From IMG/VR virus record IMGVR_UViG_2690315742_000007: 46,788 nt of DNA. One strand, written 5' to 3'. Of this stretch, positions 1 to 41,422 are shown piece after piece. Position numbers and translations under genes: made by a program. The notes below the pieces were generated by a model. It saw nothing but the letters and a program-made list of their open reading frames with translations, did not search any database and was not told the DNA's origin. This DNA is from a virus. Its lineage: Duplodnaviria; Heunggongvirae; Uroviricota; Caudoviricetes. How positions within the stretch are numbered: the first letter of the stretch is position 1; the number at the start of each line of letters is the position of its first letter.

Positions 1-1284
1 TTACAGACTTCTGGAAGGTTGCGCAGCTCTTACAACACGCGGTTGATCTTCCGCAGCGTCTTCCAGCGCACTTAAATCACGGTCTTTCACCTCTGGCATT
101 TTCAGCGCAGAGATTAAACCAATCACTGAATATGCCATGATCATAATGGCGATCGGATACCAGGATTCCGTCATGGTGCAGAAAATACCCGCCAGGATAG
201 GACCAAAACCGGAAGCGATAAGATCACCAATTTCTTTAGAAATAGCCATCCGGGTAAAGCGGTTTTTACAGCCGAACATTTCTGCCATGGTAATGTTTTC
301 CAGAGCAAATAATCCCAGCACCGCACAGTTATGAATCACAATCAGTGCAACCATAATGGTGCTCGGGGCATAGCTTTTATCTACAATGATAGAAAGCATT
401 GGCCATGCCAGCACAATCGCGGAGGTATTCATAATAATATACGGGATCCGGCGACCAATTTTATCGGATAACCAACCAAGGAACGGAATGGTCATAAAGC
501 CGAGAATCGAACTGATCATCAATGCATCTGTTGGAATTGCTTTGTTAAACAATAACGTCTGCACTAAATAGCCTGCAAGGAAAGTCTGAATTAACCCGGA
601 GTTACCCGCCTGACCAAAACGCAGCCCTGTTGCCAGCCAGAAGGATTTGCTCTGGAACATGCTACCAGCAGGTGCAGGTTTTGCTGTCGGTTGGTTACTG
701 TCGTTAACCTTCTCAAAGACCGGGCTTTCTTTCAGATTCATACGCAACCAGATAGCAAAGACCATCACGACAACGCTCGCCAGGAACGGTATACGCCATC
801 CCCACGCCAGCAGTTCCTCTTTACTGAGAATGAAGAACATAAAGGCCCAGATTGCCGTTGCGCTCAAGGTTCCGCAGTTAGTTCCCATAGCCACAAATGA
901 GGAGATAATTCCGCGCTTACCTTTTGGCGCATATTCCGCCAGCATCGTACCGGCACCGGAAATTTCCGCACCTGCACCCAACCCCTGAATAATACGCAAC
1001 GTCACCAGCAAGATGGGTGCAAAAACACCAATCTGTGCATAGGTCGGTAACACACCAATTAAGGTGGTACAGATCCCCATCATGGTGATGGTAATAAAGA
1101 GCACTTTTTTACGCCCTATTCTGTCGCCCATTTTGCCGAAAATAAATGCTCCGACAATACGCGCCACATAACCTGCACCGTAGGTTCCCATTGCCAGAAT
1201 TAACGCCATTGCCGTTGATGATTCAGGAAAAAATATTTCATGAAACACTAACGCTGCGCCGAGCGAATATAACTGGAAATCCAT
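1..1284 (-). CDS. ydfJ: MFS (metabolite:H+ symporter family) transporter; host gene flanking the prophage
   Basis: 427-aa ORF from the track, hydrophobic throughout with MFS-like motifs (GKMGDRIGRKK, GWLSDKIGRR). Matches my recollection of E. coli YdfJ, which lies next to Qin. Confidence 0.6.
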   Translation of the reverse strand: MDFQLYSLGAALVFHEIFFPESSTAMALILAMGTYGAGYVARIVGAFIFGKMGDRIGRKKVLFITITMMGICTTLIGVLPTYAQIGVFAPILLVTLRIIQGLGAGAEISGAGTMLAEYAPKGKRGIISSFVAMGTNCGTLSATAIWAFMFFILSKEELLAWGWRIPFLASVVVMVFAIWLRMNLKESPVFEKVNDSNQPTAKPAPAGSMFQSKSFWLATGLRFGQAGNSGLIQTFLAGYLVQTLLFNKAIPTDALMISSILGFMTIPFLGWLSDKIGRRIPYIIMNTSAIVLAWPMLSIIVDKSYAPSTIMVALIVIHNCAVLGLFALENITMAEMFGCKNRFTRMAISKEIGDLIASGFGPILAGIFCTMTESWYPIAIMIMAYSVIGLISALKMPEVKDRDLSALEDAAEDQPRVVRAAQPSRSL

Positions 1285-2070
1285 AATTCACAGGTGTTTT
1301 TTCCCATCCTGTGGTTTCCTTGGCGTTTTCTAGGTTTTTTCAGATAGTTGCATTTTTTTAAAAAGCATCCTAAGTTCGATCTCAGTGTCTATCTGGGGCC
1401 TATTTCTGTCCCATATATGCCCCAAAAAAACTCCCCAACAGATAAGTAGTTTTTTCATGGATTTATGCGTAAAATCAAGAACGGCTGGAAATCATTCAAT
1501 ACTCACACTATCGAAAAATTTACCAGCCAATCGCAGCACGTTCTTGCATAAGGCGTGTCTGCGGTTTTTCAACTATTCAGATACATCACTCCCATCACAT
1601 TCATTCCTCCGCATCAAAGGCATATAGGCTATATCACCTTGATATTTTTCTTTTTCAGATAAAAACTGTTATCTATGTATACTTTTAAACCCAATCCGTG
1701 TAGAGTCTCTACATAAGATAGTTTGCAGTTGCCGCTTCAGCTTGCGCCATAAACCGCCTGATTTTTGCTGCCACCTGTTAGCATTCCTGTATACCTGAAA
1801 CGACAATGTTTATCTACGAACTTTAAGAACACCCAAGATAAAAATTGTCAACTATATCATATATAACACATTACTAATTCGAGGCTATATGAACAGCATA
1901 CTGATAATCACATCTCTCCTTATCATATTCAGCATTTTTAGTCATGCCCTAATAAAATTAGGGATTGGCATATCCAATAACCCAGACAAAACCGATGTAT
2001 AAGTCAACATATCCTGAATCAGACATACAATATCGCAATGAAAATCAATAATATTTTAAGGAATATCTTC

Positions 2071-7692: not shown

Positions 7693-10600
7693 TCAACGAA
7701 TACTGATGCCTGAAGCCGCTTTTTTGGTCACAATCACCGTACAGTCGGTGATATTACCTGCCCGCTGATTGCCTTTATGGAAAACCTTAAACTCCAGAGT
7801 GACGCTTCCCCTGCCACTCGGCATATCAATAACCGCACTGTAGCTACCGGGAATGGCCCCTTTAGTTTCTCTGGATGCGATTAATACACCGTTTTTGCGA
7901 ACTTCAAAACCATAACCCGTGTATCTTGTACCTCCCGGGTTATTACCACTTCCCGGATCGCTATACGCTATTCCGTTAAAGATAATGGGCGGAATAATGA
8001 TTTGACGGTCAAAGTTATGATCATCGCTGATGGTGACTGTAACCGTCCCGTTTGGTGTTTCCGTGTTACCCCACGTACCAGCCTGTTTCGGAAATGATTT
8101 GGATACAGCTTTAACGAAGTCACCTCTGACCTGAGTCGCCTCCAGCATGCCCTTAATCGTACAGTTCTGGTTAATCGTGACATTGTTGAGCGTTCCTGAG
8201 TTCGCATTCACACTACCACTGATATCCGCATTTTTAGCGGTCAGCTTTCCGTCTGATGTCAGGGAAAATACCGGAGGACTGCCACCGCTGGTAATGGTGG
8301 GGGCTGTCAGGCGCTTCAGGAACACGTCGTTCATGAATATCTGGTTGCCCTGCGCCACAAACATCGGCGTTTCATTCCCGTTTGCCGGGTCAATAAACGC
8401 GATACGGTTAGCGGCAACCAGAAACTGGCTCAGCTTGCCTTCCTCCGTGTCCTCCATGCTGAGGCCAATACCCGCGACATAATGTTTGCCGTCTTTGGTC
8501 TGCTCAATTTTGACGCCCCACATGGCATTCCATTTATCGTTAGCGTCCTTCCACTCTTTCGAAAACTCATCCAGTCTGCTGGCGTTATCCTCCGTCAGAT
8601 CAACTTTTTCCAGCAGCTCTTTACCGAGATGGGATTCGGTTATCTTGCCTTTGAAAAAATCCAGGTAACCTTCCGCATCATCGCTCGCCCGACCGACGGC
8701 CTCCACGAATGCCGATTTGCCAACGGTGTTCACACTGCGGATATAAAAGTAATAATCATGGCCCGGTTTGATATTGATACTGGCGGCTATCCAGTACAGC
8801 GCCGTACCAAGATAGCGGGCTGTGGTTTCAACCTGCCTGATATCGGTAATCCGCTTTTCCGAGAACCAGAACTCAAACTGTACCGTCGGGTCATAAACGG
8901 CAAGATGCGGCGTGGCGGTTATCTGAAAATAGCCCGGCGTCAGCTCAATCCTCGACGGTGCTGCCGGTGCGGCAATCCGGAACGATACCGACGCCGGATC
9001 GCCCTGCTGCCCCCACGCATTTACCGCCCGGACTGTCAGCCTGTAGTTCCCTGGCGCCAGTTGCGTGAAGCGGTATGTGGTTTCCGCCGTCCGGGCCGTG
9101 CTGACCAGCCGCTCACTGCCGTCATCCGCTGCCACGGTCAGGCGAAGCATGAAACTCACGCCCTTCACCACCTTCGGCGTGTCCCTGCGGGCCAGCACCT
9201 GGTATTCCCCACTGTCTGCGGTGACTTCGGCAGTCAGGTGCTGCACCGCTGGCGGCGTGACACCATTCACCGTGCCGCTCTGGTCGCCGTCAAAGTGCGC
9301 CCCGTTATCCACGATGGCTTCTTTTTCCGGTACATGCTGCACGGCGGTGATGGCATACGTGCCGTCGTCGTTCTCACGGATACTCACGCAGCGGAACAGG
9401 CGCTGGCGCAGCGTCGGCAGCTTCAGCCCCCACACGCTGTATTCAGCAACGCCGTCAGGAACCCGGCTCACTTTCACCTTCACGCCGTCGGTGACGGACT
9501 GAACCTCCACGCTGACCGGATTGCCACTTCCGTCAACCAGGCTTATCAGCGTGGTACCGGAGGATGGCAGCGTGATTTCACGGTCGAGCGTCAGCGTCCG
9601 GGTCTGACTGTTTACCGCCAGCACGCGCCCGCCGGTGCTGATACCGGCATAGTCATCATCACAGATTTCAATGACATCGCCCGGCACATGGCGAAGCCCT
9701 TCGGCACCCACGCTGAAGTCCACCGTCTGCGTTTCCAGCAGCTCCGTTTTAATCAGCCACAGCCCGGCGCGGTGTGCCTGCCCCCGGCTGGTACAGCCAA
9801 AGGCATCCATCTTCGTGACGTTACGACCGTAACGGGCAATGGCCTGCGAGTCCTCCACAAGCTCTGTTGCCGTCTCCCAGCCGTTATCCGGGTCAATCCA
9901 GTTCACCTCAACGGCATTATGGCGGTCTTTCAGGGCGCTGAAGCTGTAGCGGAACGGCGCGCCATCATCCGGCATCACCACATTACTGCGGTTATAGGTC
10001 CACACCTTATCCGACGGTCGGTCCTGCACGAACGTCAGCGTCTGCCCGTTCCATACCGGCATACAGCGCATCGCCGAGCAGAAATCACTGAGCACATCCC
10101 ACGCCTTACGTTGTGTGGTCAGGTAAGCGTTACAGGTGATGCGCGGCTCCGTACCGCCAAAGCCGTCCGGCACCGACTGGTCGCAATTCTGGCCGATGAC
10201 ATACAGCGCCCATTTATCCACATCTGCCGCACCAAGACGTTTCCCCATGCCGTAGCGCGGGTGGGTCAGCATATCCCACAGACACCAGGCCATGTTGTTG
10301 CTGTATGCCGGTTTTAACGTTCCGTCCCAGATACCGCTGTATTGCCGCGTCTGCGGGTTATAATTCGACGGCACCTGCAGAATGCGCCCGCGAAGATGAT
10401 AATTACGGCTCACCTGCTGGCTGCCGAACTGCTCCGAATCCACCTGCACGCCGACCAGTGCCGTGTTCGGGTAGCACTGTTTCACATCGATGATTTCGGT
10501 GTATGACGACCAGAGCGTTTTGTTCTGCAGCTGGTCTGTGGTGCTGTCCGGCGTCATTCTGCGCATCCGGATATTAAACGGGCGCGGCGGCAGGTTATCC

Positions 10601-11106
10601 ACCACCACCGAGGCCAGATACTGCGAGGTGGTTTTGCCCTTAATGGTGATATCTTTTTCCGTCACCCAGCCACCATTACGCTGTATCTGAACCAGCAGGC
10701 GAACTTCCGACGGATTCCGGTCCCCCTTTGAGGTGGTTTCCACCAGTGCCTGCACACCGAAGGTAAAGCGCAGTCGGTCGATGTTTGCCGACGTGATGGC
10801 GCGGGTGATCGGCGTGTCGTATTTCACTTCCGTACCCAACACCGTCTCGGAGCCGGAGGATTCAAACCCCTCCGGCGGTGTCTGCTCCTGCTCACCGGCA
10901 CGGAACACCACCGTGACACCGGAGATGTTGGTATTCCCCTCAGTGTCCAGCACCGGCGTACTGTTCAGCAGCACGCTTTTTAATCCATCCACCGGACCTT
11001 CAACCGGCCCTTCGCTGATGGCATCGATCACACTCAGCAACTGCGTGGACTTCAGGTTGTCCTTCGCTTCGCGCGGGGTATGCCCCTTACTGCTTCCTTT
11101 ACTCAT
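7693..11106 (-). CDS. J: Tail tip / host specificity protein J
   Basis: 1137-aa ORF; N-terminal ~950 aa recognisably lambda J ([24 protein letters not shown]...); C-terminal ~150 aa differ from what I recall of lambda. Confidence 0.9.
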
Positions 11107-11166
11107 TCCTCACGCTCCATAAATGACAAAACCGCCCGCAGGCGGTTTCACATAAAACATTTTGCA

Positions 11167-11838
11167 TCAGCGACCAATCACCACAACCTGACCACCGTCC
11201 CCTTCGTCTGCCGTGCTGATCTCCTGAGAAACCACGCGTGACCCCACGCGCATTTCCCCGTACAGAACAGGCAGAACATTGCCCTGGGCAACCATGTTAT
11301 CCAGTGAGGAGAAATAGGTGTTCTGCTTACCGTTATCCGTTGTCTGTGTACGGGGAGTTCTGGCTTTCGGTGCCAGCATCTGCGCCACACCACCGAGCAC
11401 CATACTGGCACCGAGAGAAAACAGGATGCCGGTCATACCACCGGCCCCAATGGCTGCCCCCCATGCTGCAAGGGTGGCTCCGGCGGTAAAGAATGATCCG
11501 GCAATGGCGGCAGCCCCCAGGACAATCTGGAATACGCCACCTGACTTGGCCCCGGCGACTCTGGGAACAATATGAATCACAGCGCCATCAGGCAGAGTCT
11601 CATGTAACTGCGCCGTTAACCCGGACGTGCTGACGTCCCGCCCGGCAATCCGTACCTGATACCAGCCGTCGCTCAGTTTCTGACGAAACGCCGGGAGCTG
11701 TGTGGCCAGTGCCCGGATGGCTTCAGCCCCCGTTTTCACACGAAGGTCGATGCGGCGACCAAATCGTTGTAAATCCCCGTAAAGGCAGATGCGCGCCATG
11801 CCCGGTGACGCCAGAGGGAGTGTGTGCGTCGCTGCCAT
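11167..11838 (-). CDS. I: Tail assembly protein I
   Basis: 223 aa, same length and position as lambda I; C-terminal hydrophobic glycine-rich segment. Confidence 0.85.
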   Translation of the reverse strand: MAATHTLPLASPGMARICLYGDLQRFGRRIDLRVKTGAEAIRALATQLPAFRQKLSDGWYQVRIAGRDVSTSGLTAQLHETLPDGAVIHIVPRVAGAKSGGVFQIVLGAAAIAGSFFTAGATLAAWGAAIGAGGMTGILFSLGASMVLGGVAQMLAPKARTPRTQTTDNGKQNTYFSSLDNMVAQGNVLPVLYGEMRVGSRVVSQEISTADEGDGGQVVVIGR

Positions 11839-12479
11839 TTGTCGGTGTACCTCTCTCGTTTGCTCAGTTGTTCAGGAATATGGTGCAGCAGCTCACCGTC
11901 ACCACAGTAAATGGCGGCATGATTCGGCACCGATGAACCAAAACAGCACAGCAGCACATCGCCCGGCTGCGCCGCTGACAACGGCACCTGATACAGCCCT
12001 GTGGCCTCCAGATTATCCAGATAGAGATTCTGACCGTGACGCCACCAGTCATCCCCGCGATGAAAATCCGGCATCTCAATCCCCGCCAGATGATAAGCAT
12101 CCCGGAACAGCGTGTAACAGTCCGTCACCCCGTGCTCAAAGCGCCGCCCGGTGAGATGCGGCACACAGCGGAACTTATGAATCGCCCCCCGGCAGACCAG
12201 CCACCACGGCAAATCACTCTGCACCTGCAGCCGCCGGTCAGCCTCACTCAGCCAGGGCAGACCACCGGGGTGGCTGTGGACCAGCGCCACAATCTCACCC
12301 TGCATTTCTGCCTGCAGCCAGTCCTCCGGAGCCATCCGGAAATAATCCTCCGGCTCACCGGAAATATTCACGCCGGGAAAATATCTTTCCCCCTCCGGCG
12401 TGCTTACCACGAAGCCGCACGACTCCGCTGGCGCACATCGCCGGGCGTGCGCCAGAATCGCTGATTCTGTCTGTGTCAT
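11736..12479 (-). CDS. K: Tail assembly protein K (JAB/MPN plus NlpC/P60 peptidase-like)
   Basis: Lambda K-like sequence (HSHPGG... motif). Longest ORF is 247 aa and starts 6 nt downstream of the L stop; lambda's annotated 199-aa K would start at the internal Met (12335). Confidence 0.75.
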   Translation of the reverse strand: MTQTESAILAHARRCAPAESCGFVVSTPEGERYFPGVNISGEPEDYFRMAPEDWLQAEMQGEIVALVHSHPGGLPWLSEADRRLQVQSDLPWWLVCRGAIHKFRCVPHLTGRRFEHGVTDCYTLFRDAYHLAGIEMPDFHRGDDWWRHGQNLYLDNLEATGLYQVPLSAAQPGDVLLCCFGSSVPNHAAIYCGDGELLHHIPEQLSKRERYTDKWQRRTHSLWRHRAWRASAFTGIYNDLVAASTFV

Positions 12480-12484
12480 GGGAT

Positions 12485-13183
12485 TTACTGCGAAAGTTTG
12501 TTAATGGAAAGGAAGCCGCCAAAGTTGCCGACGTTATTGCGGAACTTACAACCGCTCAGGCATTTGCTGCATTTATCCTTCGTGATATCGGACGTTGGCT
12601 GGTCATATTCATCCGCGACTGCCGGACCGTGATAACCGCACTCATCACCGCGATAGGTCCAGGTGCAGGTGTTGGCCAGCATGATACGTCCCGGAAAAAC
12701 AGCACCGTCCGTTTCCGTCGGCGTGGACAGTACAAAAGAGGCACTCACCGCGCTCAGTTCGCTGCACTGCTCAATGCGCCAGCGGCTGATCACCTCCTGC
12801 TCCGGATCGGCGCCACTGTTTCCGTTGACGAAGTTCACCGCATCCAGAAAACGGGCGTAAACCTTACGCCGGACCACCGTTCCACCGACCAGACTCTGCA
12901 GATCTTCCGCCATCCCGGTGACCATACCGTACAGGTTAGAAACCGTCAGTGTGGGGCGCGTACTGGTGCCTTTGCCATTCAGTTCAAAACCACTCCCCTG
13001 AATGGGATACGGCTGATACTGTCGCCCCTGCCAGGTGACCGGCTCACCTTTTTCGTTCTGCTCATTACAGAAAAAATAACGTTCTCCACCGACCTCTGTC
13101 AGGTCGATTTCCCAGAGCACCACGCTGGCCGACTGCTCCGCACGGGTGCATTCATTCAGTGTTTCCTGCCGGATATCCTGCAT
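12485..13183 (-). CDS. L: Minor tail protein L
   Basis: 232 aa with a C-terminal Cys cluster (CSKCLSGCKF), as in lambda L. Confidence 0.85.
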   Translation of the reverse strand: MQDIRQETLNECTRAEQSASVVLWEIDLTEVGGERYFFCNEQNEKGEPVTWQGRQYQPYPIQGSGFELNGKGTSTRPTLTVSNLYGMVTGMAEDLQSLVGGTVVRRKVYARFLDAVNFVNGNSGADPEQEVISRWRIEQCSELSAVSASFVLSTPTETDGAVFPGRIMLANTCTWTYRGDECGYHGPAVADEYDQPTSDITKDKCSKCLSGCKFRNNVGNFGGFLSINKLSQ

Positions 13184-13512
13184 CAGTTCACCACCTGTTC
13201 AAACTCTGCGCTGAACTCAACACGCAGCATACTGACCCGCGACGACCATTTTGCGCAGGTCACCTTTATCTGCCGCCACTCATAAGGCGGCGTCCACAGA
13301 AAGGATTTCCAGCCCCCGTGCTCTTCCAGAAACGACTCCAGTACCGTGGCCTCCTCACGGGGGACAGAAAGCGTCACGCTGTACGTTTTCAGGTTGGCAT
13401 TCAGCCCGGCAGGCGCTCGCTGAGAATAGCCATCACCAAAGCGCACCTTTCTTACAGAAGGGATCGAAGCCACATCCATACCGGGTTTCACTTTCCAGCG
13501 GAAGGTCTTCAT
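13183..13512 (-). CDS. M: Minor tail protein M
   Basis: 109 aa, lambda M length and position (between H and L). Confidence 0.85.
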   Translation of the reverse strand: MKTFRWKVKPGMDVASIPSVRKVRFGDGYSQRAPAGLNANLKTYSVTLSVPREEATVLESFLEEHGGWKSFLWTPPYEWRQIKVTCAKWSSRVSMLRVEFSAEFEQVVN

Positions 13513-16070
13513 CGTCCACCTCCGGAGAACAGGCCACCATCACGCATCTGTGTCTGAATTTCATCACGGGCACCCTTGCGGGCCATGTCATACACCGCCT
13601 TCAGAGCAGCCGGACCTATCTGCCCGTTCGTGCCGTCGTTGTTAATCACCACATGGTTATTCTGCTCAAACGTCCCGGACGCCTGCGACCGGCTGTCTGC
13701 CATGCTGCCCGGTGTACCGACATAACCGCCGGTGGCATAGCCGCGCATCAGCCGGTAAAGATTCCCCACGCCAATCCGGCTGGTTGCCTCCTTCGTGAAG
13801 ACAAACTCACCACGGTGAACAATCCCCGCTGGCTCATATTTGCCGCCGGTTCCCGTAAATCCTCCGGTTGCAAAATGGAATTTCGCCGCAGCGGCCTGAA
13901 TGGCTGTACCGCCTGACGCGGATGCGCCGCCACCAACAGCCCCGCCAATGGCGCTGCCGATACTCCCGACAATCCCCACCATTGCCTGCTTAAGCAGAAT
14001 TTCTGTCATCATGGACAGCACGGAACGGGTGAAGCTGCGCCAGTTCTGCTCACTGCCGGTCAGCATCGCCGCCATATTCTGTGCAATACCATCAAAGGTC
14101 TGCGTGGCTGCACTTTTTACCTGCGACATACTGTCCGTGGCGCTCTCTTCCCACTCACTCCAGCCGGACTTCAGGCCTGCCATCCAGTTCCCGCGAAGCT
14201 GGTCTTCAGCCGCCCAGGTCTTTTTCTGCTCTGACATGACGTTATTCAGCGCCAGCGGATTATCGCCATACTGTTCCTTCAGGCGCTGTTCCGTGGCTTC
14301 CCGTTCTGCCTGCCGGTCAGTCAGCCCCCGGCTTTTCGCATCAATGGCGGCCCGTTTTGCCCGTTGCTGCTGTGCGAATTTATCCGCCTGCTGCGCCAGC
14401 GCGTTCAGGCGCTCCTGATACGTAACCTTGTCGCCAAGTGCAGCCAGCTGGCGTTTGTACTCCAGCGTCTCATCTTTATGCGCCAGCAGGGATTTCTCCT
14501 GTGCAGACAGCTGGCGACGTTGCGCCGCCTCCTCCAGTACCGCGAACTGACTCTCCGCCTTCCACAAATCCCGGCGCTGCTGGCTGATTTTCTCATTTGC
14601 TCCGGCATGCTTCTCCAGCGTCCGGAGTTCTGCCTGAAGCGTCAGCAGGGCAGCATGAGCACTGTCTTCCTGACGATCGCCCGCAGACACCTTCACGCCG
14701 GACTGTTTCGGCTTTTTCAGCGTCGCTTCATAATCCTTTTTCGCCGCCGCCATCAGCGTGTTGTAATCCGCCTGCAGGATTTTCCCGTCTTTCAGTGCCT
14801 TGTTCAGTTCTTCCTGACGGGCGGTATATTTCTCCAGCGGCGTCTGCAGCCGTTCGTAAGCCTTCTGCGCCTCTTCGGTATATTTCAGCCGTGACGCTTC
14901 GGTATCGCTCTGCTGCTGCGCATTTTTGTCCTGTTGAGTCTGCTGCTCAGCCTTCTTTCGGGCGGCTTCAAGCGCAAGACGGGCCTTTTCACGATCATCC
15001 CAGTAACGCGCCCGCGCTTCATCGTTAACAAAATAATCATCCTTGCGCAGATTCCAGATGTCGTCTGCTTTCTTAAACGCAGCCTCTGCCTTAATCAGCA
15101 TCTCCTGCGCGGTATCAGGACGACCAATATCCAGCACCGCATCCCACATGGATTTGAATGCCCGTGCTGTCCTGTCTGCCCAGGTCTCCAGCGTGCCCAT
15201 GTTCTCTTTCAGGCGGCGGGTCTGGTCATCAAACCCTTTCGTTGCGGCCTCGTTCGCCGCCTGCAATGCCCCGGCTTCATCGCCGGAACGCTGCAACTGA
15301 GCAACATACGCAATCTGCTCCGCCGTCACGTTATGGAACTGGCGTGCCATCGCCGTCAGCCCCGACGTCGGGTCTGTGGTCAGCTTCCCGAAGGCTTCAG
15401 CGACCTTGTCCACCTCCACGCCGGATGCAGAGGAGAAACGCGCCACACTCTGGCTGATGGACGCAATCTGAGCCTCACCGCTTACCCCCGCCTTAACCAG
15501 TGCGCTGAGTGACTCGCTGGTCTGGTTAAACGTCAGCCCTGCCGCCTGCCCGGCTCTGGACAGGGCCAGAATACGATCTGCCGTCAGTCCCGCCTGATTG
15601 CCGGAAAGGACCAGCGTTTTGTTGAAATCGGACAGGGTTGAGTTGCCCTGATACCAGGCATACGCCAGCGCACCGGTCGCCACCGCCAGCGAGGTGGCCC
15701 CCACCATCGGCAGGGTGATCGCACCGGCAAGCCCCCTGAACATGGGGATCATCCCGCCGAAGGAGTCCTTAACCTGACCACCCTGTTGCAGCAGGATCAG
15801 CCACGGACTTTGCCCGCCTGCAAGCTGCGTGGCCACGTCGGTGAACTGTGCAGGCAGCATACGCATGGCGGCTTTATACTGCCCGACGGAAATCCCCGCT
15901 TTCTGTGCAGCCAGCGCCTGTCGGCTCAGCGACTGTTCAACGACTGCCGCTGTTTTTTTCGCATCAGTTTCCGTACCGGAAAAATGACGCCTGACTCTGG
16001 CCATCTGCTCGTCAAATCTGGCCGCATCCAGACTTAAATCAACGACCAGATCGCCTACCGGTTCAGCCAT
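13509..16070 (-). CDS. H: Tail tape measure protein H
   Basis: 853 aa, identical in length to lambda H; coiled-coil-rich central region and Gly-rich C-terminal part. Confidence 0.9.
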   Translation of the reverse strand: MAEPVGDLVVDLSLDAARFDEQMARVRRHFSGTETDAKKTAAVVEQSLSRQALAAQKAGISVGQYKAAMRMLPAQFTDVATQLAGGQSPWLILLQQGGQVKDSFGGMIPMFRGLAGAITLPMVGATSLAVATGALAYAWYQGNSTLSDFNKTLVLSGNQAGLTADRILALSRAGQAAGLTFNQTSESLSALVKAGVSGEAQIASISQSVARFSSASGVEVDKVAEAFGKLTTDPTSGLTAMARQFHNVTAEQIAYVAQLQRSGDEAGALQAANEAATKGFDDQTRRLKENMGTLETWADRTARAFKSMWDAVLDIGRPDTAQEMLIKAEAAFKKADDIWNLRKDDYFVNDEARARYWDDREKARLALEAARKKAEQQTQQDKNAQQQSDTEASRLKYTEEAQKAYERLQTPLEKYTARQEELNKALKDGKILQADYNTLMAAAKKDYEATLKKPKQSGVKVSAGDRQEDSAHAALLTLQAELRTLEKHAGANEKISQQRRDLWKAESQFAVLEEAAQRRQLSAQEKSLLAHKDETLEYKRQLAALGDKVTYQERLNALAQQADKFAQQQRAKRAAIDAKSRGLTDRQAEREATEQRLKEQYGDNPLALNNVMSEQKKTWAAEDQLRGNWMAGLKSGWSEWEESATDSMSQVKSAATQTFDGIAQNMAAMLTGSEQNWRSFTRSVLSMMTEILLKQAMVGIVGSIGSAIGGAVGGGASASGGTAIQAAAAKFHFATGGFTGTGGKYEPAGIVHRGEFVFTKEATSRIGVGNLYRLMRGYATGGYVGTPGSMADSRSQASGTFEQNNHVVINNDGTNGQIGPAALKAVYDMARKGARDEIQTQMRDGGLFSGGGR

Positions 16071-16901
16071 ACCGGACTCCTCCTGCGATCCCTTCTGATA
16101 CTGTCATCAGCATTACGTCATCCTCCGTCATGTCCGCCACATCCGGGGAAGCGGGGATAACTTCATTCCCGTCCGGGCCAAAACGAACGCCTCCGGCAAG
16201 CCCTGCCGCTTTCTGCATCAGCACATCATCTTCAGGCTCTTCGTCAGCCTCGCGCCGGTTCAGCAGACTGAAATCCAGCGGATGCATATCCGGATCGCTG
16301 AAAAACAGGCTGAGCACGGTGTACGTCAGCCCGGAAAAGTGCATATCCAGCAGAACATCATGAAAATAATGGGTACTGTAAAAGCGGTGCCAGTCGGCAT
16401 ACTCCGTGGATGACATCCCGGCAAGCATGGCACGCCAGTCGGGTCGCCCCATCTCGCGCGCCAGTTTCAGGGCAAAACTCAGCTCACCGTCGAACACTTT
16501 CCCGCAGAAACAGGCTCTGCAGGCCCGGCGTCCTCTGCCTGTTCAGGGGCATCATTCACCACAAACTCATACATACCAGACAGCCGGTACACCACGTTTT
16601 CAGCATGAGAAATTGCCTCCGTGGGCCAGGTGGTAAGCACTTCCTGCTCAATCTGTTTAACGGCTTCATTCATGGACGGCATCTGCGTCTTCTGCGGATG
16701 GTTATGCCACAGGGACATCGCCACCAGAAACGCGCCGGTTCTGATGGCGTCTTCCACAGTAAACTTCCGGTTGCTGTCTGACTCCGCCTGTTCTGCCTGC
16801 CGTTTCATCAGGGCGAGATGCTCAATGCGCTGCAGGGCTGACAGTTCAGAAAGCGTGACGGTCACACCGTTATGTTCAAATGATTCGGTTTTCAGGAACA
16901 T
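16063..16901 (-). CDS. T: Tail assembly chaperone G-T fusion, made by programmed -1 ribosomal frameshift
   Basis: The T-frame ORF (16063..16497) overlaps the 3' end of G; the slippery heptamer GGGAAAG lies on the minus strand at 16497..16503, exactly where lambda shifts. Confidence 0.7.
16479..16901 (-). CDS. G: Tail assembly chaperone G
   Basis: 140 aa; recognisable lambda G (MFLKTESFEHNGVTVTLSELSALQRIEHLALMKRQAEQ...). Confidence 0.85.
   Translation of the reverse strand: MFLKTESFEHNGVTVTLSELSALQRIEHLALMKRQAEQAESDSNRKFTVEDAIRTGAFLVAMSLWHNHPQKTQMPSMNEAVKQIEQEVLTTWPTEAISHAENVVYRLSGMYEFVVNDAPEQAEDAGPAEPVSAGKCSTVS
16497..16503 (-). promoter_or_regulatory. Programmed -1 frameshift slippery site (G GGA AAG) for G-T
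   Basis: Plus strand reads ctttccc, i.e. GGGAAAG on the minus strand, in the G reading frame just before the G stop. Confidence 0.75.
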
Positions 16902-16916
16902 CGCTGACTCTCCGGA

Positions 16917-17657
16917 TTAACTGGCGGTGACGGTAATTTCTGCAACCGCAGCAAACTCACCATTACCGGATACAACCGGAATGTTGACCTTGCCTGCAGC
17001 AACGCCGTTCACGGTGATGGTCATACCACTGACCGACACGGTGGCTTTTGTTTTATCCGCAGACACCGCACGAAAGCTCTTGTCGGTTACGCCCTCCGGC
17101 TGGAAGGCCACGGTCAGCGTGGTGCTCTGCCCTTTCACCACCGAGGTGCTGGCAGGCGTCACGGTCATGCCGGTTGCCGCTGTTACCGTGCTGCGATCTT
17201 CTGCCATCGACGGACGTCCCACATTGGTGACTTTCACCGTGCGGGTGATCACTTCCTTCGCCGTCACCGCCTTACCGATACTGCTGACCCAGCCACGGAA
17301 CACATCGACCGTGCCGTTCGGGAAGCGGATTTTATAGGCACGGGTATCGCCTTCATTAAACCACGCCAGCAGCGCCTGCTGCCCCTGCTCTCCGGGCATC
17401 CACGCCAGCGTGAAGCTGGTATCTCCGGCAGATTTCTGCCCCTGCCCGGTCGCAGTCCAGTCTGCATCTTCATCATCGAGATAGCTGTCGTCATAGGACT
17501 CAGCGGTCAGTTCGCCGGGCGTCAGGTCTTTAACTTTTGCCAGACGCGACCAGTCAACGTCTGAAAGCGGATTCGCATAAGGGTCACCGCTCCCCTTATA
17601 AACCCACAGGGTGGTCCCGGCACCTTTCACCGGCATTGTAGGATTTGGTACAGGCAT
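16917..17657 (-). CDS. V: Major tail protein V, with C-terminal Ig-like domain
   Basis: Start at internal Met giving [20 protein letters not shown]..., 246 aa as in lambda V. Confidence 0.9.
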
Positions 17658-17664
17658 AGCGTCC

Positions 17665-18060
17665 TCACATTTCATAGGTAATGACATAAGTCAGATCGGC
17701 TGAACTCCACAGGCCCGCATCATCGTCGCGCCGGTAGTCATAGCCGCTGGCCACCATACTGGTGATCAAATCTGACAGTGCCGGGATATCGCTCATCACC
17801 GGATAAATCCGGGACTCCATCCACGCATCCAGCTCTGAATCCGGCACCTGAGCAGGCAGGAAAACTTCGATATGCAGCTCCGCCTGCCAGGTATCGCTGT
17901 CCAGCTCTTCGCCCGTGTATTCAGCGCCGGTGAGATAAACGGCAACTGCCGGAAAATCCGCCTCATCAAAAACAGCGGGGCGACCATCAAAAAACGTCGC
18001 CCCGGTGTCATGCTTCTCCAGTGCATCCAGTACGGCTGCACGGAGTTCAGTATGTTTCAT
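17665..18060 (-). CDS. U: Tail terminator protein U
   Basis: 131 aa, lambda U length and sequence character. Confidence 0.85.
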
Positions 18061-18634
18061 CGCTTTATTACCATCCTCAGTTGATGCTGCAGCGCATAGC
18101 CCAGCTCTTTCGGAAGACGTTCACGCCGTATCCGCTCAATATTTTGTTTAAACGCCGTGGTCAGCGGCACCGCCATCGGGATTTTCACCACATCAATGGG
18201 GTAACGGTTTTTCCCGGCCACACGCTGCATGACATGCCACCGGCCATTTTTCAGTTGCTGAATAAACGCGCCGGGAATACGACGGTTACCCACCACAAGC
18301 ACGCTGCCGCCACCTTTCAGGGATGAACGCTGCCCCTTTTTACGACGCCTGCGGCGCGAAAGGACAACCCGCGCATTACCCAGCTTGATTACGGGCAAAT
18401 CCCCCGGTTAACTTTGATTCTGGCCTGCGGATTTTTGACCGTGGCCCTTTTCAGCCTGGCCCTTTCCTTTACCAGTTTCCGGCGTACCTTTGTCTCACGG
18501 GCAACTTGTGACGCCGACTGCGATATCGCGGATGAAGCAACGCGGTTAATGGCCATTGCGGCGGCACCAGGCACCGCCGTTTTGCTGATACGGCTGAGGT
18601 TTTCAACGGCCTGCTCAAGACCTTTTATGGCCAT
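18057..18634 (-). pseudogene. Z: Tail completion protein Z, split by a -1 frameshift in a G/C homopolymer
   Basis: Track ORFs 18389..18634 (MAIKGLEQ...KVNRG) and 18057..18398 (PVIKLGNARVV...) together cover a lambda-like Z but are out of frame. The join is a C5 run at 18401..18405 where lambda, as I recall, has six. Confidence 0.7.
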
Positions 18635-18645
18635 ACATCCCCCTT

Positions 18646-18999
18646 TCAGCGGCGACGGTTAACGGCAGGCGGTACGCCCCGTCCAAGCCAGAGATGACAA
18701 CTTCCGCCATCATCCGGCGAAACCCGATCTACCCAGAAATTTTCCTCACCGATGGTCAGCGTGTCTCCACGCCGCAGCTGCCGCACCTCATCAGTCCGGA
18801 CAAACAGGGACGGGCTGGAGCCTTCAACGCGCACGCCCTGTCCGGCATAGCTGATATTTTCAGGGTCATCAAAAACACCACGTATCACCGCACCTGACTG
18901 CTCACCGGATGTCATGGTGGCTGACGTTCCCATGTACCCGCGTATCGTTTCATCGGCGCGGGCAATGGCAGCATCGAACAGGTTATCGAAATCAGCCAC
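18646..18999 (-). CDS. FII: Head-tail joining protein FII
   Basis: 117 aa, lambda FII length and position. Confidence 0.85.
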   Translation of the reverse strand: MADFDNLFDAAIARADETIRGYMGTSATMTSGEQSGAVIRGVFDDPENISYAGQGVRVEGSSPSLFVRTDEVRQLRRGDTLTIGEENFWVDRVSPDDGGSCHLWLGRGVPPAVNRRR

Positions 19000-19010
19000 A
19001 GCGCCTCCCG

Positions 19011-19409
19011 TTATTGCATTCTGGCCAGGCCGCGCTCTGTCATTTCGGCTGCCACACCGGCAGAGACACGAAACGCCGTTCCCGGCAGCACAAATGCCAC
19101 AGGTTCATCCCGCGTGGCGTGAAGTGCATCAGTATGCAGCTTCACCAGTGCCACGACCGTGACCAGTTCAGACGTATCCAGAATCACGGTATCCGGCTGC
19201 GCTGATCCCACCTCATTTTCATGTCCGGTCAGCACATTTTCCCGGCTGAGAGGGGTGTCCTGACCGGCAGTTTCATCCGTGTCATCAAGCTCCTCTTCCA
19301 GCTCTGCCACACGGAGCGCCAGTTCTTCTTTCGTCCCCGTCAGGCTGACATCACGGTTCAGTTGTTCACCCAGCGAGCGGAGACGGGCAATCAGTTCATC
19401 TTTCGTCAT
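19011..19409 (-). CDS. FI: DNA packaging protein FI
   Basis: Internal start giving MTKDELIARLRSLGEQLNRDV..., about 132 aa as in lambda FI. Confidence 0.8.
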   Translation of the reverse strand: MTKDELIARLRSLGEQLNRDVSLTGTKEELALRVAELEEELDDTDETAGQDTPLSRENVLTGHENEVGSAQPDTVILDTSELVTVVALVKLHTDALHATRDEPVAFVLPGTAFRVSAGVAAEMTERGLARMQ

Positions 19410-19450
19410 GGACTCCTCCACAGAGAAACAATGGCCCCGAAGGGCCATGA

Positions 19451-20476
19451 TTACGCCAGTTGTACGGACACGAACTCATCAGGGTCAGCCAGCAGCATCA
19501 GCGGTGCTGACTGAATCATGGTGAACTCACGCGCCGGATCGCCGGTGGTCACCCAGTTTTTCGGGTAACGGGCAGAGGCGTTAATGCCTTCGCGCTGTGC
19601 GTCCGCATCCTGAATGCAGCCATAGGTGCGCAGACCGCGTGCCTGAGTGTTCCCCAGCACCATCGTGTTGTCCGGCAGGAAGTTCTTTTTGACGCCGTTT
19701 TCCACGTACTGTCCGGAATACACGACGATGGCCACATCGCCATACATCCCCTTATAGGACACCGCTTTGCCCAGGTCTTTCACCGCTGTCTCCAGCTCGG
19801 AATTAGAGCCACGACGGGTATCCAGCTTCTCCTTGACGGCTTTGAAGGAACGGAACAGCGCCCAGCCTTTCGGATCGAACACGATGATATTCACCACACC
19901 GCTGGCGTTCAGCGCGTAGGCTTCGATATCGTCGGTCGGGTCATACGTGGACTTGTCACGCTTGCTCCACTCCGTGCCGCCGGACTGCGTGATGTTATTC
20001 TCCTCACTGCGGCCCATATCCACCTCAACCGGATCGAAGGCTTCACCGGTCATGGTGTATTTGCCCTTAAGCACGGCAGAAACTGCCTGCATCTCTTCGA
20101 CCTGAGCAATGGCCAGCTCTTCGTCACGCATGTTCTGCATGATGATGCGACGGCGGCGGTAAGCCGGGTCCGCCAGATTCTGCGGATCTTCATCCGGCAG
20201 GCGACGCAGGGTCATCTGCGGATTCACTTCATGCTTCGGCTTGACATATCCCGGCGTAAATTCAGAGGTGGAGCCGCCACGGGAACGGATAACCTCACCG
20301 GAAACAATCGGCGAAACGTACAGCGCCATGTTTACCAGTCCCGGAATTTGTGAGAGATAGACTTTCTCCGTGGTGAAGGGATAGCTCTCACGGAAAAAGA
20401 GACGCAGAAACAGCGGATCAAACTTAAATTTCTGCTCATTTGCCGCCAGCAGTTGGGCGGTTGTGTACATCGACAT
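19451..20476 (-). CDS. E: Major capsid protein E
   Basis: Start at internal Met giving MSMYTTAQLLAANEQKFKFDPLFLRLFF..., 341 aa as in lambda E. Confidence 0.9.
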   Translation of the reverse strand: MSMYTTAQLLAANEQKFKFDPLFLRLFFRESYPFTTEKVYLSQIPGLVNMALYVSPIVSGEVIRSRGGSTSEFTPGYVKPKHEVNPQMTLRRLPDEDPQNLADPAYRRRRIIMQNMRDEELAIAQVEEMQAVSAVLKGKYTMTGEAFDPVEVDMGRSEENNITQSGGTEWSKRDKSTYDPTDDIEAYALNASGVVNIIVFDPKGWALFRSFKAVKEKLDTRRGSNSELETAVKDLGKAVSYKGMYGDVAIVVYSGQYVENGVKKNFLPDNTMVLGNTQARGLRTYGCIQDADAQREGINASARYPKNWVTTGDPAREFTMIQSAPLMLLADPDEFVSVQLA

Positions 20477-20531
20477 AAAAAAATCCCGTAAAAAAAGCCG
20501 CACAGGCGGCCTTTAGTGATGAAGGGTAAAG

Positions 20532-20864
20532 TTAAACGATGCTGATTGCCGTTCCGGCAAACGCGGTCCGTTTTTTCGTCTCGTCGCTGGCAGCCTCCGG
20601 CCAGAGCACATCCTCATAACGGAACGTGCCGGACTTGTAGAACGTCAGCGTGGTGCTGGTCTGGTCAGCAGCAACCGCAAGAATGCCAACGGCAGCACCG
20701 TCGGTGGTGCCATCCCACGCAACCAGCTTACGGCTGGAGGTGTCCAGCATCAGCGGGGTCATTGCAGGCGCTTTCGCACTCAATCCGCCGGGCGCGGTTG
20801 CGGTATGAGCCGGGTCACTGTTGCCCAGCGGCTGGTAATGGGTAAAGGTTTCTTTGCTCGTCAT
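20532..20864 (-). CDS. D: Head decoration protein D
   Basis: [12 protein letters not shown]... 110 aa, lambda gpD-like. Confidence 0.9.
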
Positions 20865-20873
20865 AAACATCCC

Positions 20874-21479
20874 TTACACTGGTGTGTTCAGCAAATCGTT
20901 AACGGCATCAGATGCCGGGTTACCTGCAGCCAGCGGTGCCGGTGCCCCCTGCATCAGACGATCCAGCGCAGTGTCACTGCGCGCCTGTGCACTCTGTGGT
21001 GCTGCGGCCAGAATGCGGCGGGCCGTTTCCACGGTCATACCGGGGGTTTCTGCCAGCACGCGTGCCTGTTCTTCGCGTCCGTGAGCCTCCTCACAGTTGA
21101 GGATCCCCATAATGCGGCTGTTTTCTGCCGCAACCGCTGCGGTGATCTGCGCGTTCACGTCCGGCTGCGCCGCGCTGGCGTTTTCGCCCTCCGTCGCTGG
21201 CACCACGTCAGTAACGTCAGCCTGCGAAGCAGTGGCTGAAACAGTTGTTGATTGAGTCTCTTTGGTCATTCGCCCTCCTGAGAGACGGGATTTACGTGCA
21301 TCCAGTGCATCACGCATGACGGTGATCGCATCGGTGCTGTTAACAAGTTCATCAGCCAGTCCGGCATCAATGGCCTCCTGACCGCTGTACACTGCAGCCT
21401 CGGTATCCAGCACAGCCTGCACGGACAGGCCGGTATATGCCGACACCTTCTGCGCAAACATCTGGCGGGTTGCGTCCAT
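20874..21479 (-). CDS. nu3: Scaffolding protein Nu3, nested in frame in the 3' part of C
   Basis: Internal in-frame ATG 201 codons from the C stop (MDATRQMFAQKVSAY...), matching the lambda C/Nu3 nested arrangement. Confidence 0.5.
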   Translation of the reverse strand: MDATRQMFAQKVSAYTGLSVQAVLDTEAAVYSGQEAIDAGLADELVNSTDAITVMRDALDARKSRLSGGRMTKETQSTTVSATASQADVTDVVPATEGENASAAQPDVNAQITAAVAAENSRIMGILNCEEAHGREEQARVLAETPGMTVETARRILAAAPQSAQARSDTALDRLMQGAPAPLAAGNPASDAVNDLLNTPV

Positions 21480-22173
21480 CCGGGACTGCAGTGTCTCCCG
21501 GACGTCATCCGGAAGATGGCTGTAGGGGTTGCCATCCACCTTATGGCTGCCGCTGTAAATCAGAGTGATTTCCACACCCTGTTTCTCCAGCGCAGCACCG
21601 TAATTACTGTGAGCCATCATGACGCCGATGGAGCCTGTCCGGGCGGTCTGCGTGACCAGACGCCGGGAGGCGGCACTGGCAAGCAGCTGACCTGCACTGC
21701 AGTTCATGTCGTTGGCCAGCGCCCATACCGGTTTTATGTCACGCACACGGGCGATGATGTCAGCGCAGTCAAATGCCCCCGCCACCATCCCGCCGGGCGT
21801 GTCCATATCGAGCAGAATGCCGTCCACCATCGGATCGCTGGCAGCCTGTTGCAGACGGGCGATAATGCCGTTGTAACCGGTCATCCCCGAGTACGGCTGC
21901 AGCGCCCGCGTCCGGCTGACCAGCGTGCCGGACACCGGCAGCACGGCGATGCCGTTCATGACCTGATAACTGCGGGCCTGTCGTGGTCCGTCATCATCAC
22001 CGGATAATGCCAGCGTCGCGAGTGCCTCCTGGGCAGTCAGGCTGTCGCCGGACACCGCATCCGTCAGGCGGCTGATCCCAAGCTGGCCTGCAAGCGCACA
22101 AAAGAAAACCCGCGCATAGGCGGGTTCAAGCATCAGCGGCTCATTAAAAGCCATGCTGGCAATATGCGGGAGA

Positions 22174-22193
<20 letters not shown>
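20874..22193 (-). CDS. C: Head maturation protease C (ClpP/SppA-like)
   Basis: Lambda C-like sequence (TAELRNLPHIASMAFNEPLML...). Start assigned to an in-frame GTG that overlaps the end of B as in lambda; the longest ORF extends to 22328. Confidence 0.8.
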
Positions 22194-25874
<3,681 letters not shown>

Positions 25875-25900
<26 letters not shown>

Positions 25901-26420
25901 TCAGCAACCCCGGTATCAGTTCATCCAGCGCGGCTGCTTTGTTCATGGCTTTGATGATATCCCGTTTCAGGAAATCAACATGTCGGTTTTCCAGTTCCGG
26001 AAAACGCCGCTGCACCGACAGGGGGATCCCGTCGAGAATACTGGCAATTTCACCTGCGATCCGCGACAGCACGAAAGTACAGAATGCGGTTTCCACCACT
26101 TCAGCGGAGTCTCTGGCATTTTTCAGCTCCTGTGCGTCGGCCTGCGCACGCGTAAGTCGATGGCGTTCGTACTCAATAGTCCCTGGCTGGAGATCTGTCT
26201 CGCTGGCCTGCCGCAGTTCTTCAACTTCCCGGCGCAGCTTTTCGTTCTCAATTTCAGCATCCCTTTCGGCATACCATCTTATAACGGCGGCAGAGTCATA
26301 AAGCACCTCATTACCCTTGCCACCGCCTCGCAGAACGGGCATTCCCTGTTCCTGCCAGTTCTGAATGGTACGGATACTCGCACCGAAAATGTCAGCCAGC
26401 TGCTTTTTGTTGACTTCCAT
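25875..26420 (-). CDS. nu1: Terminase small subunit Nu1 (the gene that survives as truncated nohA in K-12 Qin)
   Basis: 181 aa, MEVNKKQLADIFGASIRTIQNWQEQGMPV... winged-HTH; overlaps the start of A as in lambda. Confidence 0.9.
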
Positions 26421-26650
26421 TGTTCATTCCACGGCCAAAAACAGAGAAAGGAAACGACAGAGGCCCAAAAGCTCGTTTTCAGCACCTGTCGTTTCCTTTC
26501 TTTTCAGGGGGTATTTTAAATAAAAACATTAAGTTACGACGAAGAAGAACGGAAATGCCTTAAACCGGAAAATTTTCATAAATAGCGAAAACCCGCGAGG
26601 TCGCCGCCCCGTAACCTGTCGGATCACCGGAAAGGACCCGTAAAGTGATA
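26421..26650 (-). other. cos region: cosB (about 26421..26597), cosN 12-nt cohesive-end sequence (about 26598..26609), cosQ (about 26610..26650)
   Basis: Plus strand aggtcgccgccc is the reverse complement of lambda's GGGCGGCGACCT; the flanking sequence also reads like lambda's left and right ends. Confidence 0.8.
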
Positions 26651-26808
26651 ATGATTATCATCTACATATCACAACGTGCGTGGAGGCCATCAAACCACGT
26701 CAAATAATCAATTATGACGCAGGTATCGTATTAATTGATCTGCATCAACTTAACGTAAAAACAACTTCAGACAATACAAATCAGCGACACTGAATACGGG
26801 GCAACCTC

Positions 26809-27042
26809 ATGTCAACGAAGAACAGAACCCGCAGAACAACAACCCGCAACATCCGCTTTCCTAACCAAATGATTGAACAAATTAACATCGCTCTTGAGCA
26901 AAAAGGGTCCGGGAATTTCTCAGCCTGGGTCATTGAAGCCTGCCGCCGGAGACTGTGCTCAGAAAAAAGAGTTTCTTCTGAAGCAAACAAAGAAAAGAGT
27001 GACATTACTGAATTGCTCAGAAAACAGGTCAGACCAGATTGA
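26809..27042 (+). CDS. ynfO: Qin-prophage small basic protein YnfO-like
   Basis: 77-aa ORF MSTKNRTRRTTTRNIRFPNQMIEQINIALEQKGSGNF...; position between cos and ydfO as in K-12. Confidence 0.6.
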   Translation: MSTKNRTRRTTTRNIRFPNQMIEQINIALEQKGSGNFSAWVIEACRRRLCSEKRVSSEANKEKSDITELLRKQVRPD

Positions 27043-28508: not shown

Positions 28509-28721
28509 TCAAAGCGCCACTACATGAACAGCGGCAGGACCTTTAGGTCCGTTCTCAATACCAAATTCAACTTCCTGATTCTCAGTTAATGTTTTGAAAT
28601 CGTTGCTCTGAATTGCTGAGAAATGGACAAACACATCTTTGCTGCCATCTTTCGGCGTGATGAAACCAAAACCTTTTTCAGGGTTAAACCATTTCACTAA
28701 ACCAGTCATTTTGTTAGACAT
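28509..28721 (-). CDS. cspI: Cold shock protein CspI (CspA family)
   Basis: 70 aa, [38 protein letters not shown]...; RNP1/RNP2 motifs. Confidence 0.85.
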
Positions 28722-31391: not shown

Positions 31392-31607
31392 TTAATCAGT
31401 AATGATGACATTTGCTGCTGCAGGACCTTTAGCACCACTCTCTATAGAGAAGGTAACCTTTTGACCTTCAAATAAGGTTCGATAATTATCATTCTGAATC
31501 GCAGAAAAATGCACAAACACATCTTTACTACCATCAACAGGAGAAATAAAGCCGAAACCTTTATCAGCGTTAAACCATTTTACTAAACCAGTCATTTTAT
31601 TTGACAT
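31392..31607 (-). CDS. cspB: Cold shock protein CspB
   Basis: 71 aa, [34 protein letters not shown]... Confidence 0.85.
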
Positions 31608-31907
31608 TCTACATTCCTTAACTTGAGCCTTTCGGCATAAATGGTTTGCATAACAGAAACGACTTCGTACTTAATTGGAGAGACTCAAAGAAGGAATAAG
31701 TGAATAACACCTGAAATGAGAACTGCTTTAGTAAACTACTTCGTATATCGTCTGTTCTTCAAACCGACGCAATCATTAACGCATAGTTGAACATATGAAG
31801 CAATGTTTATTTTAGACATCCAGCCATCTTCAACCCCATCAAAAAACTATAGCTTTCTTCAGGAACGTGTGTATAGTGCGCCAAGTTATCAGTATTAAGG
31901 AATTTTT

Positions 31908-32120
31908 TTGTCCCGTAAAATGACAGGAATTGTCAAAACCTTTGACGGCAAAAGCGGCAAGGGTCTTATCACCCCATCCGATGGTCGTATCGATGTCCAG
32001 CTTCATGTTTCAGCGCTCAATCTCCGCGATGCAGAAGAAATTACCACCGGATTACGCGTGGAATTTTGCCGGATAAATGGTCTGCGTGGCCCTTCAGCTG
32101 CCAATGTTTACCTTTCATGA
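31908..32120 (+). CDS. cspF: Cold shock protein family member CspF
   Basis: 70 aa, [37 protein letters not shown]... Confidence 0.8.
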
Positions 32121-35327: not shown

Positions 35328-35398
35328 AGCCTGCTTCTCCTGTCAACGCAAAGCAGAAGTGTCACCTTCGGTGCGAAACAGAGATGTCATGCTTTGGT

Positions 35399-39784: not shown

Positions 39785-40236
39785 CGTCTTTTATTTCGTG
39801 GTATGAGTAATGTTTCACGATCCACTACGGCAGGATCAGCAAAAAGCAGTCCGGACTCCACCACATCGCCATATTCTTTGTTTAACCCGGCGATCATGCA
39901 CGTGATGCTTTTTCCGTCAGTAATTTCACGATACAACCTGAAATCATTAATCCGGATAGCCTCCATAATTGCAGGCACTAGCGCCGTGAACTTTTCACGC
40001 TTATCCCTGGTGTCGATAGCCTTCCAGCGTTCAAATATCTTCACTCGATTAACGCCAAGCGCTCGCTGATCAATCGCGCCACCTTCATATGTGACACGCT
40101 GAACATCGATGTTCGGGCGCTCTTTCAAAGCCCAGAATGCTTCAGTGATTAATATCGTCGCCTGCTCCTGTGTCATTCCTGGTCGACATATCCAGGCATC
40201 CAGAGCCTCACGAGCCTGTTCAGGAGTGATTTTCAT
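39781..40236 (-). CDS. YdaT-like protein, second gene of the dicC (cro-side) operon
   Basis: 151-aa ORF overlapping the dicC 3' end; resembles Rac YdaT (shared ...ALVPAI.../...ALLPAI... region). K-12 Qin has only fragments (ydfX/ydfW) here. Confidence 0.5.
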   Translation of the reverse strand: MKITPEQAREALDAWICRPGMTQEQATILITEAFWALKERPNIDVQRVTYEGGAIDQRALGVNRVKIFERWKAIDTRDKREKFTALVPAIMEAIRINDFRLYREITDGKSITCMIAGLNKEYGDVVESGLLFADPAVVDRETLLIPRNKRR

Positions 40237-41263: not shown

Positions 41264-41264
41264 T

Positions 41265-41393: not shown

Positions 41394-41422
41394 TAAGCGA
41401 AACAGCACCGCGAGGAATCAGT

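Follow-up and report, generated by a model that had tools for sequence, protein, structure and literature searches.

Introduction

The systems closest to the locus described here are the complex cos site of phage lambda, served by the gpNu1-gpA terminase, and the prophages of the Qin family. Within the lambda cos site, cosQ is a 7-bp, highly conserved site (PMC4669245), and a role has been described for I2, which spans lambda bp 18-50 (PMC4856287). In cosB, the R3 site occupies bp 50-65, of which bp 55-63 form the contact segment for the small terminase subunit (TerS); mutation of bp 56, 58 or 59 alters packaging (PMC9026076, PMC4669245). R3 is the most critical of the R sites (PMC9026076). 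Phage 434 has lambda packaging specificity (PMC4669245), and the annotation of its record places I1 at 74-86, R2 at 108-123 and R1 at 151-166.

The fate of a cos site that resides in a prophage has also been considered. Packaging from a lone prophage cos is expected to proceed into the adjacent host DNA, where the motor stalls and leaves a tailless, non-infectious particle (PMC4669245, Feiss et al.), and lateral transduction has been described as something that cos phages do not perform (PMC12829572). Infecting lambda is documented to recombine with the cos region of DLP12, with the events clustered at cos (PMC3945230). Additionally, defective lambdoid prophages are released as particulate DNA through prophage-prophage interactions (PMC2669165). 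Our own literature search on Qin cos function and on lambda-qin hybrids found nothing directly on the Qin cos. The lambda qin recombinants of Espion et al. 1983 reportedly carry the Qin late region.

In this study we analysed a single stretch of viral DNA of 46,788 nucleotides, referred to throughout as the window, for which an earlier note had proposed an intact lambda-type cos site with its cognate terminase. The analysis leads us to regard it as highly likely that the cos site in this region belongs to a Qin-type lambdoid prophage that lies in ydfJ and carries its own Nu1 and A together with a lambda-like set of head and tail genes.

Results

Prophage identity and gene content

Judged by its sequence, the window is a 46.8-kb, full-length Qin-type lambdoid prophage integrated in ydfJ. 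It is >99.97% identical to the prophage of E. coli A27 and its relatives. The annotation of A27 begins with ydfJ' and continues to tfaQ, the lambda-like tail and head genes, nohA, ynfO, ydfO, gnsB and the csp genes; these are followed by the lysis genes, ydfT(Q), relBE, hokD, dicC/dicA/dicB, an exonuclease gene, xis, int and rspB. The annotation of near-identical genomes, together with collinearity, thus places the window in ydfJ near rspB and assigns to it the dicA/dicC/dicB, relBE-hokD, csp and ynfO-nohA genes by which Qin-type prophages are recognised. The prophage repressor is DicA, and Q and the lysis genes are full length. The principal features outside the cos region are as follows.

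1-1284: truncated host gene ydfJ (from annotation)
1276..1289, no strand assigned: attR core GAATTATGGATTTC (read on the minus strand), from comparison of PhiR42_1 attP, window attR and A27 attL
7693..18060, minus strand: tail genes U, V, G/T, H, M, L, K, I and J, all full length (protein comparison with lambda and PhiR42_1; open reading frame list)
18649..23978, minus strand: head genes W, B, C/Nu3, D, E, FI and FII, all full length (tblastn, 99-100% to lambda proteins, single full-length matches)
45222-45473, plus strand: xis, intact, 100% identical to the PhiR42_1 protein
45493-46788, plus strand: int, intact, 99% identical to the PhiR42_1 protein; the window ends at the int stop codon

The attR position derives from PhiR42_1 (PV340562.1), a Qin-type temperate phage with ECOR13 in its host field. 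Its record is joined across attP (core GAATTATGGATTTC), with an overlap of ~781 bp between its ends and a unit length of 47,885 bp. A record joined across attP with overlapping ends represents excised phage DNA, and the same join fixes the attR of the window at ~1276-1289. In PMC13190303, plaque assays were run with a panel of 'PhiR' phages, which are temperate and related to lambda, and Brenes & Laub 2025 is cited as the source. Going by its name, PhiR42_1 would belong to this panel. Such membership, together with the GenBank record (the attP join and a listed propagation host), suggests that PhiR42_1 is a viable phage.

The window and A27, its closest complete genome, differ in several respects. 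A27 carries an ISSen4 insertion that is absent from the window (at ~39277-39280), and its xis and stf genes are annotated as frameshifted; in the window xis (45222-45473) and a 1026-aa Stf open reading frame (3884-6964) are intact. The non-structural cargo of the window consists of three cold-shock genes (cspI, cspB and cspF), the relBE and hokD toxin-antitoxin modules and the dicA/dicC/dicB-ydfD division-inhibition region, located at 28512-28721, 31395-32117, 35175-35925 and 40223-42582.

The cos site and its subsites

The earlier note had placed cosN at about 26598..26609. The plus strand of the window reads AGGTCGCCGCCC at 26598-26609, which is the exact reverse complement of the 12-base left cohesive end of lambda, GGGCGGCGACCT, and a motif scan found this exact match only once in the 46.8-kb window. 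By base counting, ~0.006 exact hits to the 12-mer would be expected by chance. When one mismatch was allowed, the 12-mer produced a hit in 21 of 100 shuffles and is therefore not significant alone, so that the case for cos rests on the long alignment that surrounds it.

That alignment bears out the description of the flanks as resembling the genome ends of lambda. On one side of the nick, window 26610-26971 (minus strand, read 26971-26610) corresponds to lambda 48141-48502, with 100% identity over the final ~336 bp. On the other side, the window aligns to lambda 1-18474 without a break from 26609 down to 8137, at 98.4% identity and with 3 gaps. A BLAST search with 701 bp around cos recovered lambda along with numerous lambdoid phages, at identities of 97-98.7% (E = 0).

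Identity with the lambda right arm stops near 26971, ~360 bp from the nick and inside the ynfO (DUF3950) open reading frame (26809-27042, plus strand), and this point marks a mosaic junction. The corresponding complement-strand open reading frame of lambda, which starts near bp 48303, is unannotated in NC_001416.

Limits of the individual subsites were taken from papers of the Feiss laboratory and from the annotated phage 434 record, and each was checked base by base on the window. The resulting map is given below.

26633..26639, minus strand: cosQ, GGGTCCT, packaging-termination subsite (presumably lambda 48473-48479); identical to the lambda right end and upstream of cosN
26598..26609, minus strand: cosN cohesive end GGGCGGCGACCT; identical to lambda bp 1-12
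26596-26611: cosN with two symmetric flanking base pairs per side, 16-bp CGGGGCGGCGACCTCG; identical to lambda
26560..26592, minus strand: I2, AT-rich bent segment between cosN and cosB (lambda bp 18-50); identical to lambda
26545..26560, minus strand: cosB R3, TerS (Nu1) site (lambda bp 50-65), AGGCATTTCCGTTCTT; 15/16 against lambda, with G54A at window 26556
26524..26536, minus strand: cosB I1, IHF-binding core (lambda bp 74-86), plus-strand reading AAACATTAAGTTA; identical to lambda
26486..26501, plus strand: cosB R2, inverted TerS site, CTGTCGTTTCCTTTCT on the window plus strand; identical to lambda
26445..26460, minus strand: cosB R1, TerS site, CTGTCGTTTCCTTTCT; identical to lambda

The lambda-type layout is present, with three R repeats of which R2 is inverted and with the IHF site between R3 and R2. 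The spacing between cosN and cosB is unchanged from lambda, since bp 13-53 are identical and contain no indel. Within lambda bp 1-190 the window shows seven differences: G54A, A73G, T102C, G134A, deletion of bp 138, T145G and T176G. The last five all lie in spacers, and A73G, which adjoins the I1 core, is common to phage 434. The R2-R1 spacer is 1 bp shorter than that of lambda, as it also is in phage 434 and PhiR42_1. Of the seven differences, 434 has six, so that lambda is the odd one out at these positions and only A54 is unusual.

The earlier note had named mismatches within cosN or R1 to R3 as evidence against an intact site. None was found in cosN, R1 or R2. Strict identity with lambda fails in R3 at the single position G54A, a base that does not vary among the three R sites of lambda; the contact segment at bp 55-63 is identical. 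Our comparison indicates that G54A does not argue against cos function, because it falls outside bp 55-63 and outside positions 56, 58 and 59, and because the cosN-cosB segment that includes A54 is 100% identical to that of PhiR42_1.

Terminase genes

Both terminase genes lie directly beyond cosB, and the claim that they are full length holds for each.

25875..26420, minus strand: Nu1 (nohA), terminase small subunit, 181 aa, full length; Pfam Phage_Nu1 PF07471, E 2e-101
23975..25900, minus strand: A, terminase large subunit, 641 aa, full length; Pfam GpA_ATPase (PF05876) and GpA_nuclease (PF20454)

The start codon of Nu1 is at window 26420, the A open reading frame overlaps the end of Nu1, and the gene order that follows cos is Nu1-A-W-B, as in lambda. 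Nu1 is 98.3% identical to the lambda protein and differs from it only by K48R, A75T and L132I. None of these changes falls in the recognition helix (residues 17-24) or the wing (residues 31-39), with limits as defined in PMC9026076, and among solved structures the protein matches the DNA-binding domain of gpNu1 (PDB 1J9I and 6HN7). The A protein is 99.4% identical to lambda gpA (T151S, D185E, P231L and I459V); a comparison of the gpA sequence with solved structures returned no match.

The A54 allele and its association with Nu1 K48R

A 37-mer carrying the A54 allele matched 1 of 50,697 phage records, that of PhiR42_1. Among IMG/VR contigs the allele was found in 65; cosN was exact in all 64 of those that include it, and cosQ was intact in 62 of the 64. 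The allele is associated with a residue of Nu1: R48 was present in 38 of 44 complete Nu1 open reading frames beside A54 and in 5 of 83 beside G54, and both recombinant combinations exist in these contigs.

R3 bp 54 lies at window 26556 and Nu1 codon 48 at window ~26277-26279. Since the two sites are ~280 bp apart and residue 48 is outside both the recognition helix and the wing, simple linkage within one lineage is far likelier to account for the association than any functional matching. That A54 and K48R form a co-adapted TerS-cosB pair is, in our estimation, very improbable. Were it true, Qin-type phages would have a slightly shifted or IHF-dependent packaging preference; alternatively, the chromosomal cos would gain or lose effectiveness as a decoy against invading terminases of the lambda type.

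Lesions in the replication initiator and in tail gene Z

Two lesions distinguish the prophage from a complete phage.

39811..39812, no strand assigned: junction of a 2.25-kb deletion relative to PhiR42_1 (record positions 8042-10295), from alignment
18060..18634, minus strand: tail gene Z, in which the loss of 1 bp from a G6 run (window 18392-18404) is inactivating and leads to a stop after codon 81

The 2.25-kb deletion removes the YdaT-like C-terminus, an O-like replication initiator, a Ren-like (DUF977) gene and a methyltransferase fragment. The deleted initiator is the 321-aa protein of PhiR42_1, which matches PHROG 391 'replication initiation O-like' at E 1e-91. Its loss agrees with the suggestion in the earlier note that the element cannot replicate autonomously. 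No morphogenetic gene of the window other than Z is broken, and Z is annotated as 'frameshifted' in strain A27 too; all other genes of the morphogenetic region are full length. The gpZ protein is needed for infectious tails. Its loss would thus add a tail defect, which a helper could complement.

The 39811/39812 junction is found in E. coli C-type strains and in A27 as well. An origin of the window from E. coli C itself was considered on account of this shared junction and was rejected, since the E. coli C Qin lacks cos through stf.

Qin prophages at ydfJ form a graded series of decay. At its intact end, PhiR42_1, a phage, is followed by the window, with O deleted and Z frameshifted. The decayed end is formed by K-12 (ER1709), in which A through stf is deleted and cos is kept, and then by E. 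coli C, in which ynfO' through stf is deleted and cos is lost.

Discussion

Our results indicate that the cos site and terminase of the window are very probably functional and of lambda specificity, a conclusion drawn from their sequence. The proposed course of packaging follows the layout of the locus, in which cosQ, cosN, I2 and cosB (R3-I1-R2-R1) are followed directly by Nu1 and A. In a mechanism taken from lambda, gpA would be positioned to introduce staggered nicks 12 bp apart in cosN. The terminase-bound cosB end would then dock on a prohead, translocation would run from Nu1 through A to J, that is, towards lower window coordinates, and packaging would be ended by the next cosQ/cosN. Cleavage of the site would be expected both from the resident terminase and from terminases of lambda, 434 or phi80 type. 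Helpers of these types should recognise it because the elements read by Nu1 are equal to those of lambda.

The earlier note had also held that the DNA of the element is in principle packageable, by its own terminase or by that of a co-resident lambda-like helper. This view is supported, within narrower limits. Initiation by the resident terminase or by that of a helper with lambda specificity would be expected, but a further cos must lie downstream for packaging to terminate, an arrangement that a concatemer provides. Having lost its replication initiator, the element should be unable to make concatemers. With no concatemers and a single cos, the predicted result is in situ packaging into host DNA and stalled, tailless particles. 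In such an event ~25.3 kb of prophage (from Nu1 to attR at ~1276) would be pumped in, followed by ydfJ', ydfI, ydfZ, rspR, ydfG, dcp and further host DNA, until the head is full. The motor would then stall on a tailless, non-infectious particle. Alternatively, excision by Int/Xis would yield a monomer circle of ~45.55 kb, which could acquire a second cos only by recombination with a helper genome. Lambda packages DNA within limits of roughly 38-51 kb, so that a circle of ~45.55 kb is of packageable size. Productive packaging of the circle would nonetheless need recombination with a helper, because the monomer has one cos; homology for recombination with lambda is available over 18.5 kb at 98.4% identity. 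Overall, a single cos on non-replicating DNA should support initiation and abortive or in situ packaging and not efficient transfer. The expected consequence is recombination with, or abortive packaging by, phages of lambda specificity and not autonomous spread.

A functional site is not the only way to read these data. The cos could be a decaying relic in which G54A, the shorter R2-R1 spacer and the other substitutions weaken or abolish recognition by terminase. Such a reading draws on the conservation of G54 in all three R sites of lambda, on the standing of R3 as the most critical R site (PMC9026076) and on the decay of the prophage elsewhere, with O deleted and Z frameshifted. We nevertheless consider it highly unlikely: bp 1-190 are identical to those of the phage PhiR42_1, bp 54 is outside both the 55-63 contact segment and the known defective positions 56, 58 and 59, and the spacer and other changes are common to the viable phage 434. 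Decay also fits poorly with the frequency of A54, which occurs in 65 IMG/VR contigs, nearly all of them with intact cosN and cosQ. A different objection grants that the site is intact and attributes this to recent divergence. The cos would then be inert, residing in a permanently silent prophage whose late genes are never expressed, with no selection acting on it. The 651-bp region around cos is 100% identical in K-12 strains in which terminase A is deleted, which shows that the sequence persists without a working terminase, and E. coli C has lost cos altogether at no obvious cost. On the other hand, this proposal concerns use, not capability, and is in no conflict with a cleavable site. Terminases of lambda specificity are also common, as 4633 of 5426 complete genomes contain cos regions of the lambda type, and recombination of infecting lambda with the cos regions of cryptic prophages is documented for DLP12 (PMC3945230). 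We therefore hold an inert cos to be possible but rather doubtful.

The absence of a replication initiator of its own and of a tail gene, yet with int, xis and cos retained, might also suggest a helper-dependent, PICI-like satellite whose cos hijacks the packaging of a helper. The remainder of the locus is at odds with such an element, for it contains no rpp-type redirecting gene, encodes its own TerS and TerL and a complete set of capsid genes, and has a helper-type cosB (R3-I1-R2-R1) in place of a PICI-type cos without R repeats. Furthermore, the window is collinear with a complete phage and its defects are simple lesions. A satellite is accordingly extremely improbable, and a Qin-type prophage with a cos site of lambda specificity remains our preferred interpretation.

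A feature of this kind is already known. It combines a lambda-type complex cos and gpNu1-gpA with a member of the Qin family, and nothing in it is new in kind. Its importance beyond annotation is small, as the cos and terminase of lambda are textbook material and the same 651-bp region is present in the K-12 Qin. What is useful here is an exact map of subsite positions, together with an inventory of the parts that are intact (cos, terminase and head) and those that are broken (the replication initiator and Z).

Comparison with described systems sets the locus apart from PICI-type cos satellites, which have an rpp redirecting gene by cos, lack R repeats and have neither terminase nor capsid genes of their own (PMC9026076). 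The window carries R repeats of the helper type and encodes a terminase (Nu1 and A) and head proteins of its own. In lambda, cosQ, cosN, I2, I1, R2 and R1 are identical to those of the window and stand in the same order and orientation. The two sites differ by G54A in R3 and by six spacer substitutions or indels (bp 73, 102, 134, deletion of 138, 145 and 176), and in the window homology to the right arm ends ~360 bp from the nick. Phage 434 has six of the seven differences from lambda, including the R2-R1 spacer shortened by 1 bp; it has an R3 variant of its own, C53T instead of G54A, and a few private changes. More broadly, lambda-type cos regions are found in ~85% of complete E. coli genomes (4633/5426), with a median of 2 per genome.

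Among Qin prophages, that of K-12 (ynfO-cos-nohA) is 100% identical to the window over 651 bp spanning cos and has the same ydfJ integration site and flanking genes. K-12 Qin has lost the segment from the end of nohA to within stf and is thus without the large terminase subunit and the head and tail genes, whereas the window keeps these. The closest counterpart is PhiR42_1, which is collinear with the window over its whole length, shares the att core and is 100% identical in cosN-cosB bp 1-190 and in the Nu1, A and W proteins. The window departs from it by the absence of 2.25 kb, including the O-like initiator, and by the frameshift in Z; G, M, J and stf are 87-94% identical. Provided that PhiR42_1 is viable, as its record and its presumed place in the PhiR panel suggest, the exact combination of cos and terminase found in the window would be one that works in a live phage.
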